From sequence record NC_025447.1: a DNA stretch of 64,000 bases. The stretch is one strand, 5' to 3'. Positions 1-64,000 of the stretch are shown here, piece by piece. Below the pieces are notes generated by a model that had not been told where the DNA came from, ran no database searches, and saw only the letters and a list, made by a program, of their open reading frames with translations. Origin of the DNA: Escherichia phage 121Q. A program made the position numbers and the translations under genes. The first letter of the stretch is position 1. Each line of letters opens with the position of its first letter.

Positions 1-45
1 TTTTGATACAATAACCACATCAAAAAATTGCATCTGAGGATACTT

Positions 46-708
46 ATGTTAGTTAATCTTAATTTCATCACTTCACCTGACTGGGCATTACGTGGGGTTT
101 CTTTAAACTTCAAGGAAACTATGTTTGATTACATTGGTGAGTGTACATTGGTAAATGCAACTTTTGACCCAAATCATCCGTTCTGGGCTGAAATTCATGA
201 TCCAACTGTAAACAACAATACATCTGTTATGACTATTGTCCAGACTAAACATGCAGGTATCCTTGCAGGTTATCGACCTGGACATGCAATTGAACACTTC
301 ACTGATTACGATGTAGTGGATGAATACCCAATGATCCATGAAGATGGAAGTCTATACACATCTGAAGACTTCCGTGCTATCTTTAATAGTACTGATGATA
401 TTCTACCAAGTGGACGTCCACGTCCTGAGTCTTATCTTATGCATCCATCTTATGGTGTAGCAGATACGCTTGAACAGATTATGAATAAGTACAAGAACCT
501 AATTGAAGGTCCAGAAGAAATTGTCCTGTGCTATCACCCAGTACTTAAGTCTGAACAACCAAAGGATGGTGGATGGCGTTGGCATAAGAATGGTGAGTAT
601 ATCGGTACTAAACGAAGTAAAGAACGTTTTGAGTACTTGTATGATGAACCAGATGTTGATGTGGTTTTGTGTTATAATTTTATTAAGGTGAAAAAGAAAT
701 GTATCTAG
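46..708 (+). CDS. hypothetical protein
   Basis: ORF open from 28 (TTG); first ATG at 46 has SD GAGGA about 6 nt upstream; no family recognised. Confidence 0.6.
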   Translation: MLVNLNFITSPDWALRGVSLNFKETMFDYIGECTLVNATFDPNHPFWAEIHDPTVNNNTSVMTIVQTKHAGILAGYRPGHAIEHFTDYDVVDEYPMIHEDGSLYTSEDFRAIFNSTDDILPSGRPRPESYLMHPSYGVADTLEQIMNKYKNLIEGPEEIVLCYHPVLKSEQPKDGGWRWHKNGEYIGTKRSKERFEYLYDEPDVDVVLCYNFIKVKKKCI

Positions 709-941
709 TACTAAGTTTTGTTGTTGCACTATTGTTTATGTTCTATCCTACACTAGTGGCATTAGCCACTAGACGAACGATGGTAGATCTCACTACTGTA
801 TTCTTGCTAAACGTGGCATTAGTACTGGTGTCTATTATCATTCCAGTGAGCTTTACAGTTATTGATATTATTTCGGTATTACTCTTCGTGTTAAGTTATC
901 TTATGCTTATTGAAGAAACAAATGTTGACAAACGTTCGTAG
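699..941 (+). CDS. small hydrophobic membrane protein
   Basis: 80-aa ORF, strongly hydrophobic with TM-like segments; start overlaps end of upstream gene. Confidence 0.5.
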   Translation: MYLVLSFVVALLFMFYPTLVALATRRTMVDLTTVFLLNVALVLVSIIIPVSFTVIDIISVLLFVLSYLMLIEETNVDKRS

Positions 942-998
942 TACTGTATAATGGTTCCTGTAGTCTGAAACTTAACACTTAAACTTGAGGTAAAAAAT

Positions 999-1325
999 AT
1001 GCTATCAGTACTAATTTCAATTCCGTCTTTAATTCTGATTTGGCTTCTGGTTTACGAATGCTTTATTACTGATGATAATGATAAAAAAGAGTTCTCTGAG
1101 TTGTTTATGCTTGATTCACCGATTGTGCGTATTTTCTATACAGTCGTTGTGGTTTCAGTAATTGTATGGGTTTTGAGTTTTATCTTCCCACTCGGTGCAG
1201 TAGTTAAAACTTTGGATTTAGTTGAGAACTTTGTTGCAATTATGTGGCTAATCAAAGCACTATTTGCAGGAAATGTTAAAATTTGGATTGATATTATCAA
1301 ATTCAAGTTCACGAATAAGATGTAA
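999..1325 (+). CDS. membrane protein
   Basis: SD GAGGT before ATG; hydrophobic TM-like segments. Confidence 0.6.
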   Translation: MLSVLISIPSLILIWLLVYECFITDDNDKKEFSELFMLDSPIVRIFYTVVVVSVIVWVLSFIFPLGAVVKTLDLVENFVAIMWLIKALFAGNVKIWIDIIKFKFTNKM

Positions 1326-1403
1326 CAGTGAAAATATCTCTATAGTATTAAATACTTCTGTACATATATATAGTACAGAAGTATTTCTCGTTAGAGGTTT
1401 GTT

Positions 1404-1763
1404 ATGAAGAGTTATATAAAATTAATAGCACTTGTGTGTGCATTATTTTCATGTTTTAGTTATGGTGCAGCAGCAGAAACATATTGTCGTAGTACTAAGG
1501 GAACGTGGCATGTATTGACTAACGACCCTAGAAATGGTAAAAATATAGTTGTTGATGGTGTGATTTATCGTTTTAAAGTAGAAAGTATTATCGGTAATAA
1601 AAAAATCTCGACTTATAGAGATGATTCTGGTACATTAGCAAACGTAATATTAATTGTAGACCCAAGAACTGGTAATGGTGATATCTATATAGTAATTTAC
1701 TTGGACTCATCGGTACGCCGTGACCTAGATATAGATAAATTGAACTTACACTGTGAAATATAG
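1404..1763 (+). CDS. secreted small protein, Cys-pair family
   Basis: SD AGAGG; N-terminal signal peptide; one Cys just after the signal and one Cys 3 aa from the C-terminus. Confidence 0.65.
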   Translation: MKSYIKLIALVCALFSCFSYGAAAETYCRSTKGTWHVLTNDPRNGKNIVVDGVIYRFKVESIIGNKKISTYRDDSGTLANVILIVDPRTGNGDIYIVIYLDSSVRRDLDIDKLNLHCEI

Positions 1764-1774
1764 GACTTAAAAAA

Positions 1775-2152
1775 ATGGTAAACACTATTTTACTTTTGTT
1801 GTTGAATATTCCAATTATTCTGTCTTTTTTAATTTCTATTTTTATGGCAGGATATTGTTTAGTTGCAGTAATTCATTTCATTTTAACAAACAAATATGTC
1901 CTAATTTCTAAGCTTGATTCTATTTTTGCTTGCGATTCGATTGCTTATAACTTGTGGTTAATTTGTTCTTGCATTATGGGAGTAACTTTCCTTCTGCATG
2001 TATTTGATGTCCTTGACCAAAAGTTCGTATACATCAGTACTGGATTGGCTCTTTATCCTGCTACGTGGTACTTGATTTACGTTGGTGATATATGGTATAG
2101 TACTTATAAAGAATATCAGTACAAGAAATCACTTAACGTTGGAGGAAAATAA
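1775..2152 (+). CDS. membrane protein
   Basis: 125-aa hydrophobic ORF in same-strand gene block; weak SD. Confidence 0.5.
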   Translation: MVNTILLLLLNIPIILSFLISIFMAGYCLVAVIHFILTNKYVLISKLDSIFACDSIAYNLWLICSCIMGVTFLLHVFDVLDQKFVYISTGLALYPATWYLIYVGDIWYSTYKEYQYKKSLNVGGK

Positions 2153-2154
2153 TC

Positions 2155-62110: not shown

Positions 62111-62331
62111 TTATTTTAACTTACATTGAATATCAAAAACGTTTAAATGCATCCAGAGACATAAGGATTCAAATATTCAATAACAAAAGATTGAAGCCTG
62201 ATATCAGGAAAATCAAAATCATAGAAGCAGAGTTGTGCAACTTTCTAGGGACGAACTATCAGGCAGGTAAGGTAGAAAACTATCTTATAGAACTCATGAA
62301 TAGTATTGAAAATAAATGTAAGGGTAATTAA
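62101..62331 (+). CDS. T-array small protein
   Basis: LGTNYQAGK motif. Confidence 0.6.
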   Translation: MQMIILTYIEYQKRLNASRDIRIQIFNNKRLKPDIRKIKIIEAELCNFLGTNYQAGKVENYLIELMNSIENKCKGN

Positions 62332-62332
62332 C

Positions 62333-62599
62333 ATGAAAATGATCAATTTAAGTAAAGATGAATATAACGAGCGACGTGCAAAAATCTCAACTAAACGCAC
62401 CGAAATCTATTACAGCGAAGAAATCAAACACGACAAGAAGATGATTATGATACGTGAGTTGATAATGGGTGCTATGCTAGGAACTAACTATCAAGAACAA
62501 GAGGTACAACTCGTATTAAATGAATTACTAATGGAAATCAGAGGTAAGCTGTACTTTCATCAAATGACCCGCCCACTAAGGTGTACTAGGAATGATTAA
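62333..62599 (+). CDS. T-array small protein
   Basis: start MKMINLSKDEY; LGTNYQEQE motif. Confidence 0.6.
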   Translation: MKMINLSKDEYNERRAKISTKRTEIYYSEEIKHDKKMIMIRELIMGAMLGTNYQEQEVQLVLNELLMEIRGKLYFHQMTRPLRCTRND

Positions 62600-62807
62600 C
62601 ATCACATTACAAGAAAGGTTCATACGCATCAACTATGCAATTTCCAAATTAGATGCTACAATAGGATTTCAAAGTCTACCATTCAAAACAAGAATGATAT
62701 TAGAGTGTGAAGCCAAGTTAGGTGTACTGTTAGGGACGCAACACCAACAACGATATGTGGAAATCTGGATTGACCTTTTAACCCAAAATATATATGAGAG
62801 AATGTAA
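62592..62807 (+). CDS. T-array small protein
   Basis: LGTQHQQRY motif. Confidence 0.6.
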   Translation: MINITLQERFIRINYAISKLDATIGFQSLPFKTRMILECEAKLGVLLGTQHQQRYVEIWIDLLTQNIYERM

Positions 62808-63044
62808 ATGCAAAATGAAATGATATACTTAACACCTGCTGAGTTAACAGAAAGACTAGTTAAATCCAGAAGATATACAAATCAACTTCCTCACAACCCA
62901 AACCAGACCCCAGCCGAAAGGAGTGCAGAAGTTTTATTCCAATCACTACCATACCTTCTTGGAACTAATAGACAAGAGTATCATATCGAACGTATAATTA
63001 AATATCTTAAAATTACTATTAAGGAAAAAGTAAATGCAAAATGA
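62808..63044 (+). CDS. T-array small protein
   Basis: LGTNRQEYH motif; near-duplicate of next gene. Confidence 0.65.
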   Translation: MQNEMIYLTPAELTERLVKSRRYTNQLPHNPNQTPAERSAEVLFQSLPYLLGTNRQEYHIERIIKYLKITIKEKVNAK

Positions 63045-63279
63045 AATGATATACTTAACATATAATGAATACGTCGAGAGATTAGTTAGTGCCAAGAGAT
63101 ATGCCAATCAACTTCCTAATGATCCAAACCAAACCCCAGAGGAAAAGAATGCGGAAGCTCTATTCCAAGCACTACCATACCTTCTTGGAACTGATAGGCA
63201 GGAGTATCACGTTGAACGTATAATTAAATCTCTTAAAATCACTATTAAGGAAAAGATACATGAAACACTTGACAGATGA
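63034..63279 (+). CDS. T-array small protein
   Basis: LGTDRQEYH motif; near-duplicate of previous gene. Confidence 0.65.
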   Translation: MQNEMIYLTYNEYVERLVSAKRYANQLPNDPNQTPEEKNAEALFQALPYLLGTDRQEYHVERIIKSLKITIKEKIHETLDR

Positions 63280-63490
63280 TGAACATGGGCTTATAGTAAT
63301 GGATGTAATCAACATCGAATACAAAAAGTTGATACGCTACCGTTGTTATGAAGATAAGCAACTAGTTCTAGCAGAACAGAAGTTGTTTCGACTCTTAAAC
63401 ACAAACTACCAAGCACAATACGAAGAATCGTATATGTACCTTTTGGCGAGGAAAGCAAAAAGAGATTATGAAAATTTTAAGCAAAGGTGA
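63260..63490 (+). CDS. T-array small protein
   Basis: LNTNYQAQY motif. Confidence 0.6.
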   Translation: MKHLTDDEHGLIVMDVINIEYKKLIRYRCYEDKQLVLAEQKLFRLLNTNYQAQYEESYMYLLARKAKRDYENFKQR

Positions 63491-63689
63491 TTCAGTAATA
63501 TTACTTATAGAGAGTTCAAGTAAATTCTTAAACATAACACTGTCTGATATAGATGAAGATGATAAAGAAGTACTGAGAGCAGATTTAAGAGTACTGTTAC
63601 ATCTCGGAACAAACCTACAAGAAGAATATGTAGAGTGCTACATCAATGAACTTAAAGAATCAGTACTGAGAAGATGCAAATGCAAATGA
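63468..63689 (+). CDS. T-array small protein
   Basis: LGTNLQEEY motif. Confidence 0.6.
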   Translation: MKILSKGDSVILLIESSSKFLNITLSDIDEDDKEVLRADLRVLLHLGTNLQEEYVECYINELKESVLRRCKCK

Positions 63690-63907
63690 AAATGATTACC
63701 GACGAAGAATACCTAACAATTATAAATGGATTGTTTTTGAAGTTGTTTGTTATTAACACATCAGATATACCAGATATGGATAAAATTATTAAGAGAAATG
63801 AAATCTATGTTCTAGCTACCCTGGGAACTAACTATCAAGAATACGATATTAATGATTATATTAATACACTTAAACGAGCGATTGAACTAAAATGCCAAAA
63901 CCACTAG
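63674..63907 (+). CDS. T-array small protein
   Basis: LGTNYQEYD motif. Confidence 0.6.
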   Translation: MQMQMKMITDEEYLTIINGLFLKLFVINTSDIPDMDKIIKRNEIYVLATLGTNYQEYDINDYINTLKRAIELKCQNH

Positions 63908-64000
63908 GAACAGCAGAATACATTGAACTCATGGGATTACACTTCTCATCCTTTCAGAAACTTATGCGAGAATCAAAGAATGATTTAGAATATACCATCA
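63893..64000 (+). CDS. hypothetical protein, 3-prime truncated by window end
   Basis: ATG overlapping upstream stop; ORF runs off the window. Confidence 0.35.

Follow-up and report, generated by a model that had tools for sequence, protein, structure and literature searches.

The palindrome AGTACT as a candidate lineage-specific DNA word in Escherichia phage 121Q and other RaK2-like jumbo phages

The palindrome AGTACT is the most frequent hexamer in a 64,000-nucleotide stretch of Escherichia phage 121Q (NC_025447.1), the whole of which is referred to below as the window; an exact count gave 271 copies, or 4.2 per kilobase (kb). Its enrichment, the selection acting on it, its distribution among related phages, its geometry in promoters and the symmetry of its flanks were all directly observed. 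We tentatively propose, as a possible reading, that AGTACT is a lineage-specific word in duplex DNA that would be recognized by a two-fold-symmetric phage factor and would act both as an operator of early promoters and as a genome-wide self-tag.

Megablast analysis matched the window to Asteriusvirus jumbo coliphages (G17, Sharanji, CRJP21, PBECO4, fEgEco12 and others), with 97–99% identity across 1–25 kb and ~89% across 39–64 kb; its GC content is 35.7%. The direct terminal repeat of fEgEco12 is 20,993 base pairs (bp) long, as confirmed experimentally (PMC13070987), and the fEgEco12 matches together with this length place the terminal repeat at ~39.5/41.7–59.6 kb of the window. By these alignments, the window runs from the end of the unique region, through the terminal repeat with its early genes, into the start of the unique region. 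The terminal-repeat region is densely filled with small early genes, the majority of which have their own promoter. The open reading frames (ORFs) were called crudely, so that all coding figures are approximate. The following features set the frame:
1..64000, no strand assigned: dispersed AGTACT, 271 copies, 165 within ORFs (all three frames) and 106 intergenic
41000..59640, plus strand: early-gene region, counterpart of the Asteriusvirus direct terminal repeat, 119 AGTACT sites (6.4/kb); left boundary approximate (39.5–41.7 kb)
39195..41160, no strand assigned: mostly non-coding hot spot with 20 sites (10.2/kb), at or close to the boundary of the terminal repeat

AGTACT would be expected 21.6 times from base composition, 22.0 times from an order-1 Markov model and 46.8 times from an order-2 model. 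Unmasked expectations climb at still higher orders (103.5 and 222.7) because sub-words of the motif (AGTAC, GTACT and GTAC) inflate the model. With the motif masked, orders 1–4 gave 17.6, 26.3, 30.8 and 28.7 copies, corresponding to an observed/expected ratio of 8.8–15.4 (Poisson z 43–60), and the runner-up palindromic hexamer of the window was enriched just 2.15-fold. The strong over-representation claimed in the original prediction was thus borne out and goes beyond its estimate (271 vs 18–31 masked; 9–15-fold). The base preceding the site is C in 44% of the copies and the base following it is G in 49%, and the extended form CAGTACTG is found 57 times vs 0.9 expected. Site density is 9.0/kb in intergenic DNA vs 3.2/kb in coding DNA, where the 165 sites confirm the predicted presence inside genes. 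The dense cluster that had been noticed by eye at 39–41 kb was recovered with 8 sites in 39–40 kb and 11 in 40–41 kb. As a separate observation near the terminal-repeat boundary, ~15 degenerate iteron-like units of 8–10 bp (TAGATGGCT / TGGACGGCT / TAGACGTCT) fill non-coding DNA at 40200–40420 and may be a terminase or replication element.

Repetition of cassettes contributes little to this excess. When the 271 sites were clustered by their ±20 bp contexts, they fell into 212 clusters, 200 of them singletons and the largest comprising 41 sites, and cassette copies account for at most one fifth of the sites; placements in promoters and hairpins together make up ~15–20%. Once contexts had been collapsed, the k-mer/Markov comparison still gave 9–10 times expectation, well over two-fold after correction for composition and cassette copies. 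The alternative raised in the original prediction, that the word is simply a by-product of repeated cassettes, is rejected on the basis of these 200 unique contexts, the use of three frames, the even distribution along genes and the enrichment in genera without nucleotide similarity to the window.

Coding sites are under selection as DNA. They occupy all three frames (AGT-ACT 60, xAG-TAC-Txx 36, xxA-GTA-CTx 69) and are evenly placed along genes, with one or more in 45 of the 57 genes of at least 300 nucleotides. The observed 165 sites compare with 49.1±5.7 under within-gene synonymous codon shuffling (z=20) and with 22.6 under codon-order shuffling (z=32). Ser-Thr dipeptides number 133 vs 86 expected (Thr-Ser, 89), and AGTACT is the spelling of 45% of them vs 12.5% expected by codon usage; Val-Leu dipeptides number 164 vs 101 expected (Leu-Val, 93). 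AGTACT has shaped the dipeptide content of the proteins. We further compared the window with G17 and with ECO103 4-12-1, a complete relative of which 350 kb were analysed. Divergence at third codon positions inside sites was 0.31 times that at other third positions in the comparison with G17 (p=4e-6) and 0.51 times in that with ECO103 4-12-1 (p=3e-4). Site gains and losses were balanced in the two alignments (43 vs 40 and 37 vs 29, respectively), a pattern that fits many weakly selected sites turning over in mutation–selection balance.

The phage translation apparatus deserves a separate remark. G17 encodes a tRNA-Ser (79,693–79,784) with the anticodon ACT, confirmed by ARAGORN and unusual for bacterial systems. 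It would read AGT, the first codon of in-frame AGT-ACT, and AGT makes up 28% of the Ser codons of the window. A tRNA-Thr(TGT) is likewise encoded by G17.

The bases flanking the sites indicate how the word may be recognized. Among sense-oriented coding sites, C at -1 (74 sites) is mirrored by G at +6 (81 sites) and T at -3 (74 sites) by A at +8 (83 sites); C is scarce at -4 and G correspondingly scarce at +9, so that the symmetry extends to ±4 bases. A preceding G is disfavoured, with 6% genome-wide vs 16% in the background. This mirror symmetry argues for duplex-DNA recognition by a two-fold-symmetric reader with a probable footprint of ~14 bp, and speaks against both an mRNA signal and a bare type II enzyme site. 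The preferred extended form would be T-rich/C-AGTACT-G/A-rich.

The most regular placement of AGTACT is in early promoters. A σ70 consensus scan of the terminal-repeat region gave 99 sites vs 63±7.5 in shuffles, and twelve perfect 12/12 promoters (TTGACA-16/17-TATAAT) lie within 18.7 kb (window 41000–59700). AGTACT stands at a fixed position in 29 of the 32 strongest plus-strand σ70-type promoters of the region: in the spacer in 12 (TTGACA-N9-AGTACT-G-TATAAT), abutting or overlapping the -35 box in 8 (AGTAC-TTGCAA or AGTACT-A-TTGACA), at spacer and -35-adjacent positions together, 22 bp apart, in 6, and fused to the -35 box in 3 (TTGAC-AGTACT). The site centres fall at about -16.5, -28.5 and -38.5, that is, in steps of 10–12 bp or about one helical turn. 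As in an operator, a dyad-symmetric site overlaps core promoter elements at fixed positions in these 29 promoters. The promoter classes are as follows:
49492..49519, plus strand: class A promoter, TTGACA-N9-AGTACT-G-TATAAT, site spanning about -19 to -14; the window has this architecture in ten exact copies (925, 11510, 39822, 46462, 49492, 50084, 51886, 53132, 53491 and 56348)
42771..42803, plus strand: class B promoter, AGTACTTGCAAA...TATAAT, site abutting or overlapping the TTGCAA -35 box; AGTACTTGCA is found 14 times across 41.0–58.8 kb
49798..49833, plus strand: class C promoter, a pair of sites separated by 22 bp, one immediately before the -35 box and the other in the spacer; present four times (46992, 47286, 49798 and 57209)
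51196..51223, plus strand: -35-fused promoter, TTGAC-AGTACT; five such junctions (17565, 51196, 54707, 54983 and 57537)

The spacer arrangement TTGACAATAGTTTTTAGTACTGTATAAT given in the original prediction was located at 49492 and 53132. Except for the 22 bp pair in promoters, spacing between sites showed no periodicity or helical phasing up to 150 bp. When positions were taken relative to AGTACT in Klebsiella phage OU509535, TTGACA was found at -15 in 18 cases, and TATAAT at +7 in 16 cases and at +27 in 8 cases, compared with a background of ~1 per offset. Of the promoter geometries, that of the spacer and, less strongly, that of the upstream site recur in this Klebsiella phage, whose nucleotide sequence shows no similarity to the window.

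Further elements accompany these promoters. Downstream of most of the perfect σ70 promoters lie a conserved TTTTACATC start region and, immediately ahead of the ribosome-binding site, a G-rich hairpin. In addition, a cassette occurs four times (48918–48945, 52612–52639, 55910–55937 and 57834–57861) upstream of AGTACT-bearing promoters; in it, a hairpin with a 12 bp stem, AAAGGGATTGACTCCGGTCAGTCCCTTT, precedes GCTATTATAT and a segment with conserved CTAGCCCACAGGGTGCA, and the whole could be a terminator–promoter unit or a small RNA.

Outside promoters, intergenic copies of AGTACT are found in hairpins and at gene ends:
22288..22307, minus strand: terminator-type hairpin GCCAGTACT-TT-AGTACTGGC, downstream of an RCC1-like paralogue, AGTACT in both arms
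40976..40989, no strand assigned, second copy at 43565: 14 bp perfect palindrome ATTCAGTACTGAAT, at gene ends

The terminator-hairpin placement had likewise been predicted, and was located at 22288 and 25957. Related hairpins, some with one decayed arm, lie at 24669, 25957, 27180, 32863 and 34080, and the annotation of G17 lists homologous hairpins as terminators. Looser AGTACTGAAT units directly follow stop codons. The genes in front of the hairpins form a family of their own, as ~11 paralogues of RCC1-like beta-propeller proteins occupy the minus strand at 21092–35273 and most are followed by a hairpin with AGTACT in its arms; elsewhere these proteins have been labelled 'DNA condensation protein', from the domain name only.

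We then asked how widely the excess is distributed. In the 350 kb of ECO103 4-12-1, AGTACT occurs 918 times vs 101 expected, is the top hexamer (with CAGTACTG as the top octamer) and is present at least four times in every 5 kb bin. The other samples gave the following values:
Klebsiella phage OU509535 (K64-1/RaK2 type, ~50% protein identity), three 50 kb pieces: 22.6x, 10.6x and 11.2x
RaK2, three stretches: 12–30x
Cronobacter phage GAP32: 9.6x
Serratia phage BF: 7.7x
Salmonella phage Munch: 8.2x
XaC1 (reported on Xanthomonas): 7.2x
Two uncultured IMG/VR contigs: 12x and 22x
Pseudomonas phage PA5oct: 0 in 16 kb, 4.7 expected
Agrobacterium phage Atu_ph07: 1 in 17 kb, 2.5 expected
T4-like coliphage phiEC1: 6 vs 11 expected (0.54x)
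rV5-like coliphage ESCO32: 0 in 19 kb, 6.4 expected
E. coli K-12, one 50 kb sample: 3 copies (0.06/kb)

The density in the AGTACT-rich phages (2.6–4.2/kb) is ~45–70 times that of the host, the host figure being that of the single 50 kb K-12 sample. In the sequences sampled, the excess appears to characterize the RaK2-like jumbo phage clade, six genera or more, rather than the host or phages generally. The complete lack of AGTACT in the samples of the unrelated large phages ESCO32 and PA5oct suggests that the word is actively avoided elsewhere, as a restriction site would be.

Two stretches of the window are free of AGTACT, and relatives of the phage contain a third kind of block:
14828..16870, plus strand: AGTACT-free island with a CapR-homology-domain gene at 14900–16363
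59508..63568, plus strand: AGTACT-free operon in which ~17 small genes are tightly packed from the inner edge of the terminal repeat onward
ECO103 4-12-1, 285,378–293,664, and TH47, about 17,000–25,000 of the piece analysed: AGTACA block, an 8.3 kb operon containing no AGTACT

The CapR island starts where a 99.3% match to CRJP21 stops and is therefore probably a recently exchanged gene that does not yet bear AGTACT. The same explanation, recent foreign DNA, was considered for the 59.5–63.5 kb block and rejected, as this operon is native to Asteriusviruses; it is conserved within that group only (81–94% identity in at least 30 genomes). In both ECO103 and TH47, the layout past the end of the window is the terminal repeat, ~5 kb without sites, ~2.4 kb with sites and 8.3 kb without sites. 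The last of these segments carries a variant word: AGTACA occurs there 45 times in the sense and 0 times in the antisense orientation (p=6e-14), with every reading frame represented (18/13/11). GTAC occurs there 76 times vs 18.8 expected, with T following none of 75 sense-strand copies. The block also has tandem CAGTACAGTACAGTACA runs. Conservation of AGTACA between ECO103 and TH47 was not significant (68% vs 58%, p=0.13), and the genes of the block (160–207 amino acids) had no Pfam match and just 10–21% identity to one another. Outside the block, AGTAC shows no strand skew genome-wide (1168 sense vs 1149 antisense). It may be that the elementary unit is an oriented AGTAC, of which the palindrome is a two-way form.

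How could these properties be brought together? In the reading that we tentatively favour, the reader would most likely be a dimeric DNA-binding protein of the RaK2-like clade, encoded outside this window; its nature as a protein, its origin in the phage and the effect of its binding are what we infer. It would act at two levels. As an operator-like element in nearly all early σ70-type promoters, AGTACT could switch these on or off jointly. As a dispersed tag at 2.6–4.2/kb, it would mark phage DNA vs host DNA (~0.06/kb), for example to be selectively coated, protected or organized throughout the genome. The suggestion in the original prediction of a genome-wide functional site thus gains indirect support from synonymous conservation, retention in the clade, fixed promoter positions and mirror-symmetric flanks, while its packaging variant found no specific support and its modification variant is weakened.

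Several observations weigh against this reading. The Pfam scan of 145 window ORFs revealed no DNA-binding family, and the gene table of fEgEco12 offers just weak HHpred winged-helix matches as candidates for the reader. Sixty-one percent of the AGTACT sites lie inside genes, which is unusual for operators. In the alignments with G17 and ECO103 4-12-1, conservation of non-coding sites did not clearly exceed that of the adjacent DNA (ratios 0.73 and 1.04). The spacing of sites has no periodicity of the kind that would suggest wrapping or higher-order arrays, and the strictly strand-specific AGTACA (45:0) of the relatives would not be expected of a symmetric dimer and suggests a possibly polar unit. 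Because no reader was found and most sites are genic, our confidence in this reading is modest. Pfam matches that were obtained among the window ORFs comprise RCC1-like repeats (11 paralogues), CapR, a pyrimidine-dimer glycosylase and a DksA/TraR zinc finger, as well as a ParE-like toxin, a GNAT acetyltransferase, an AAA ATPase and a kinase; all PHROGs matches were of 'unknown function'. A DksA/TraR zinc finger and a GNAT acetyltransferase have been annotated by others in the early region.

A bolder form of the operator-and-tag reading is possible and at the same time rather doubtful. It holds that the clade has a virus-encoded 'self-word' system of ~900 copies per genome, in which a phage factor would control the early promoters and mark self, and in which the strand-specific AGTACA would be a second dialect implying a polar reader. 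If true, no highly iterated palindrome would have been described in a virus before AGTACT, which would also represent a new principle of phage genome self-identification beside hypermodification and nucleus formation. Sharanji forms no phage nucleus (PMC11895373), RaK2 has no hydroxymethylcytosine pathway (PMC3622015), and cutting of fEgEco12 DNA by ten enzymes as predicted gives no indication of hypermodification.

An epigenetic mark is unlikely. AGTACT could be the target of a phage methyltransferase or of another modification and label the DNA as self, or one of its strands, for purposes such as repair, the timing of replication or ScaI-type protection. A 6 bp palindrome is a typical target of type II methyltransferases, and AGTACT is itself the ScaI-type target sequence (AGT^ACT). 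The clade encodes several methyltransferases: a C5 enzyme occurs clade-wide, with conserved forms in Asteriusvirus, in GAP32 (75%) and in a Klebsiella jumbo phage (64%), and adenine enzymes have been reported (PMC11895373, PMC5259590). Moreover, ~900 unprotected ScaI-type sites would be a liability in a genome purged of other palindromes (GCGC 0/179, CCATGG 0/47.5, CTGCAG 0/35.9), and the model of Elhai for the cyanobacterial palindrome HIP1 predicts that a methylated word accumulates to ~1/kb (PMC4390886). However, methylation by itself provides no cause for a ten-fold excess. Bisulfite data for RaK2 indicate CpG methylation (PMC3622015), and AGTACT contains no CpG. The rV5-like phage ESCO32 has a C5 methyltransferase of 51% identity and yet not a single AGTACT in 19 kb. 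The deamination neighbours AGTATT/AATACT, at 1.42x, are in line with the other neighbours and show no depletion, and flank preferences reaching ±4 bases are unusual for type II enzymes. In addition, fEgEco12 DNA was cut as predicted by ten restriction enzymes, ScaI not being among them (PMC13070987). The C5 methyltransferase is a doubtful determinant of the trait, since its distribution does not track AGTACT outside the clade and the RaK2 data point to CpG.

The loss of other palindromes is an observation in its own right. GCGC is missing from the window (49.9 expected), from the 350 kb of ECO103 (179 expected) and from all other AGTACT-rich samples of the clade. Elsewhere it is present, with observed/expected counts of 11/12.7 in PA5oct, 25/34 in Atu_ph07, 12/14 in the rV5-like and 24/62.5 in the T4-like phage, and 342 copies per 50 kb in E. 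coli. Other 6 bp palindromes at zero genome-wide are CCATGG, CTGCAG, AGGCCT, GAGCTC, CTCGAG and CGTACG, and the asymmetric words CTCCTC, GAGACC and CAGCTC are at zero likewise. The missing palindromes are most simply explained by an extreme avoidance of restriction sites, and the total loss of GCGC tracks the AGTACT-rich clade. Neither AGTACT nor GCGC is mentioned for these phages in the openly searchable papers; subscription literature was outside this search, and earlier notice is possible.

A polar signal appears decidedly unlikely as the main explanation. An oriented (C)AGTAC would in this case be read on one strand by a translocating enzyme, as a Chi-like attenuator, a primase site or a translocase guide, and the palindrome would be two overlapping units. 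The AGTACA block of ECO103 and TH47, with its 45:0 orientation, its use of three frames and its GTAC excess (76 vs 18.8), speaks for such a signal. AGTACT is also, like Chi, frequent in coding DNA, where it shapes codon and dipeptide use, and genuine Chi is enriched and oriented in the terminal repeat, from which it appears that nuclease attenuation matters to the phage. Set against this, AGTAC has no sense/antisense skew outside the block, a polar signal would not lead one to expect fixed promoter positions or mirror-symmetric flanks, the conservation of AGTACA fell short of significance and no cognate enzyme was identified. Neither modification nor polarity is mutually exclusive with the operator-and-tag reading, and each can coexist with it.

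Neutral molecular drive, in which biased repair or gene conversion (very-short-patch or methyl-directed) would regenerate the word without function, is very improbable. Such models have been proposed for HIP1 (PMC4390886), and drive would also mimic conservation at synonymous positions. However, the one-mismatch neighbours of AGTACT are undepleted (1.04–1.94x), save AGGACT/AGTCCT at 0.62x, and fixed promoter positions recur in two genera with unrelated sequence. Furthermore, native blocks of 4–13 kb are wholly free of AGTACT, one of them with a strand-specific variant, which is unlike a genome-wide repair bias.

It is barely plausible that AGTACT serves to titrate or recruit a host protein that binds DNA, such as the nucleoid-occlusion factor SlmA. 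The SlmA site, the 12 bp palindrome GTGAGTACTCAC, shares the central AGTACT as its core (PMC3020112), and nearly all hosts of the clade are Enterobacterales. However, the phage sites lack the outer arms and disfavour the inner G/C flanks: GAGTACTC was found at 0 of 271 window sites and 4 of 918 ECO103 sites, GT.AGTACT.AC at 0 of 271 and 1 of 918, and G before the site is disfavoured. XaC1, reported on Xanthomonas, retains the trait, and other coliphages lack or avoid AGTACT. SlmA titration was rejected on the flanks, given that the outer GT/AC arms are missing. Finally, an artefact of composition, cassettes or protein coding has practically no chance, for only a minority of sites lie in repeated promoter/terminator cassettes (largest cluster 41), whereas there are 200 singleton contexts, ~9-fold or greater enrichment in masked Markov orders 1–4, sites in three frames and z=20 vs synonymous shuffles.

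Two further observations concern other elements of the window and the records of its relatives. Chi, GCTGGTGG, occurs 14 times in the window vs ~0.2 expected per strand, and 28 times in 350 kb of ECO103. Its positions are:
Plus strand, Chi GCTGGTGG: 11033, 40046, 40894, 46155, 50321, 51782, 52700, 55078, 56486 and 57947
Minus strand, Chi GCTGGTGG: 28483, 28741, 28996 and 40034

Inside the terminal repeat, all seven copies are on the plus strand, which is the active orientation for RecBCD entering at the right-hand genome end. In the GenBank record of CRJP21 (309,828–324,670, equivalent to window 1–14,843), product labels look shifted by several genes. The label 'endonuclease V' stands on a 112-residue ORF while the true pyrimidine-dimer glycosylase (window 13337–13852) is labelled hypothetical, and 'protein kinase' is placed on a 73-residue ORF. 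A 'restriction enzyme' of this record (window ~11.1–11.5 kb) was rejected as a candidate: it lacks family support, and the labels of the record look offset.

These findings bear on several questions. Since AGTACT recurs every 250–400 bp in the phage vs ~17 kb in the host, it provides a testable handle on the distinction of self from host DNA; its presence in nearly all early promoters offers another on the timing of ~100 early genes in phages of 350 kb. The combination of AGTACT excess and zero GCGC can serve as a quick metagenome signature for the clade, and the word is relevant to recoding and engineering of these phages. They would also be a small, genetically tractable model for HIP1-type palindromes, whose function has been debated for ~30 years.

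Among known systems, Chi, KOPS and DUS/USS are asymmetric words with an oriented action, over-represented inside coding DNA, that mark a genome's own DNA for a processing machine; DUS/USS often form terminators as inverted pairs. Like these pairs, AGTACT arms terminator-type hairpins behind the RCC1-like genes. Unlike Chi and KOPS, it is palindromic and has no strand skew except in the AGTACA block of the relatives. The 'stoperators' of mycobacteriophage L5 and the C1 operators of P1 are dispersed repressor sites, present in tens of copies, mostly intergenic and asymmetric, and SPO1 TF1 binds early promoters in the terminal redundancy, selecting DNA by base modification and not by a word. AGTACT resembles these L5, P1 and SPO1 sites in having many copies over the phage genome and in overlapping early promoters in the terminal repeat; it differs from the L5 and P1 sites in being present at ~900 copies per genome, 61% genic and symmetric. 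Phage genomes normally avoid restriction sites. In contrast to ScaI-type restriction targets, AGTACT is enriched and has flank preferences beyond those of a type II enzyme.

The closest counterpart in form is HIP1, GCGATCGC, the highly iterated palindrome of cyanobacteria (PMC5861425; PMC4390886). Both are short palindromes with a many-fold genome-wide excess, lie in and between ORFs, are conserved beyond background and are lineage-specific (PMC5861425, PMC4390886). However, the HIP1 core CGATCG is found 0 times in the window, and AGTACT is not HIP1 proper. AGTACT is an AT-rich word of 6–8 bp, occurs in a virus and not in a cell, and is so far without a linked cognate methyltransferase. It is built into promoters at fixed positions, whereas no gene-level role has been shown for HIP1. 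The periodicity of HIP1 is at 10–90 kb; none was seen for AGTACT in the range of spacings examined, up to 150 bp. Taken together, a virus here carries a highly iterated palindrome that has both a regulatory placement and a polar sister motif, and whose defining features set it outside the named families.

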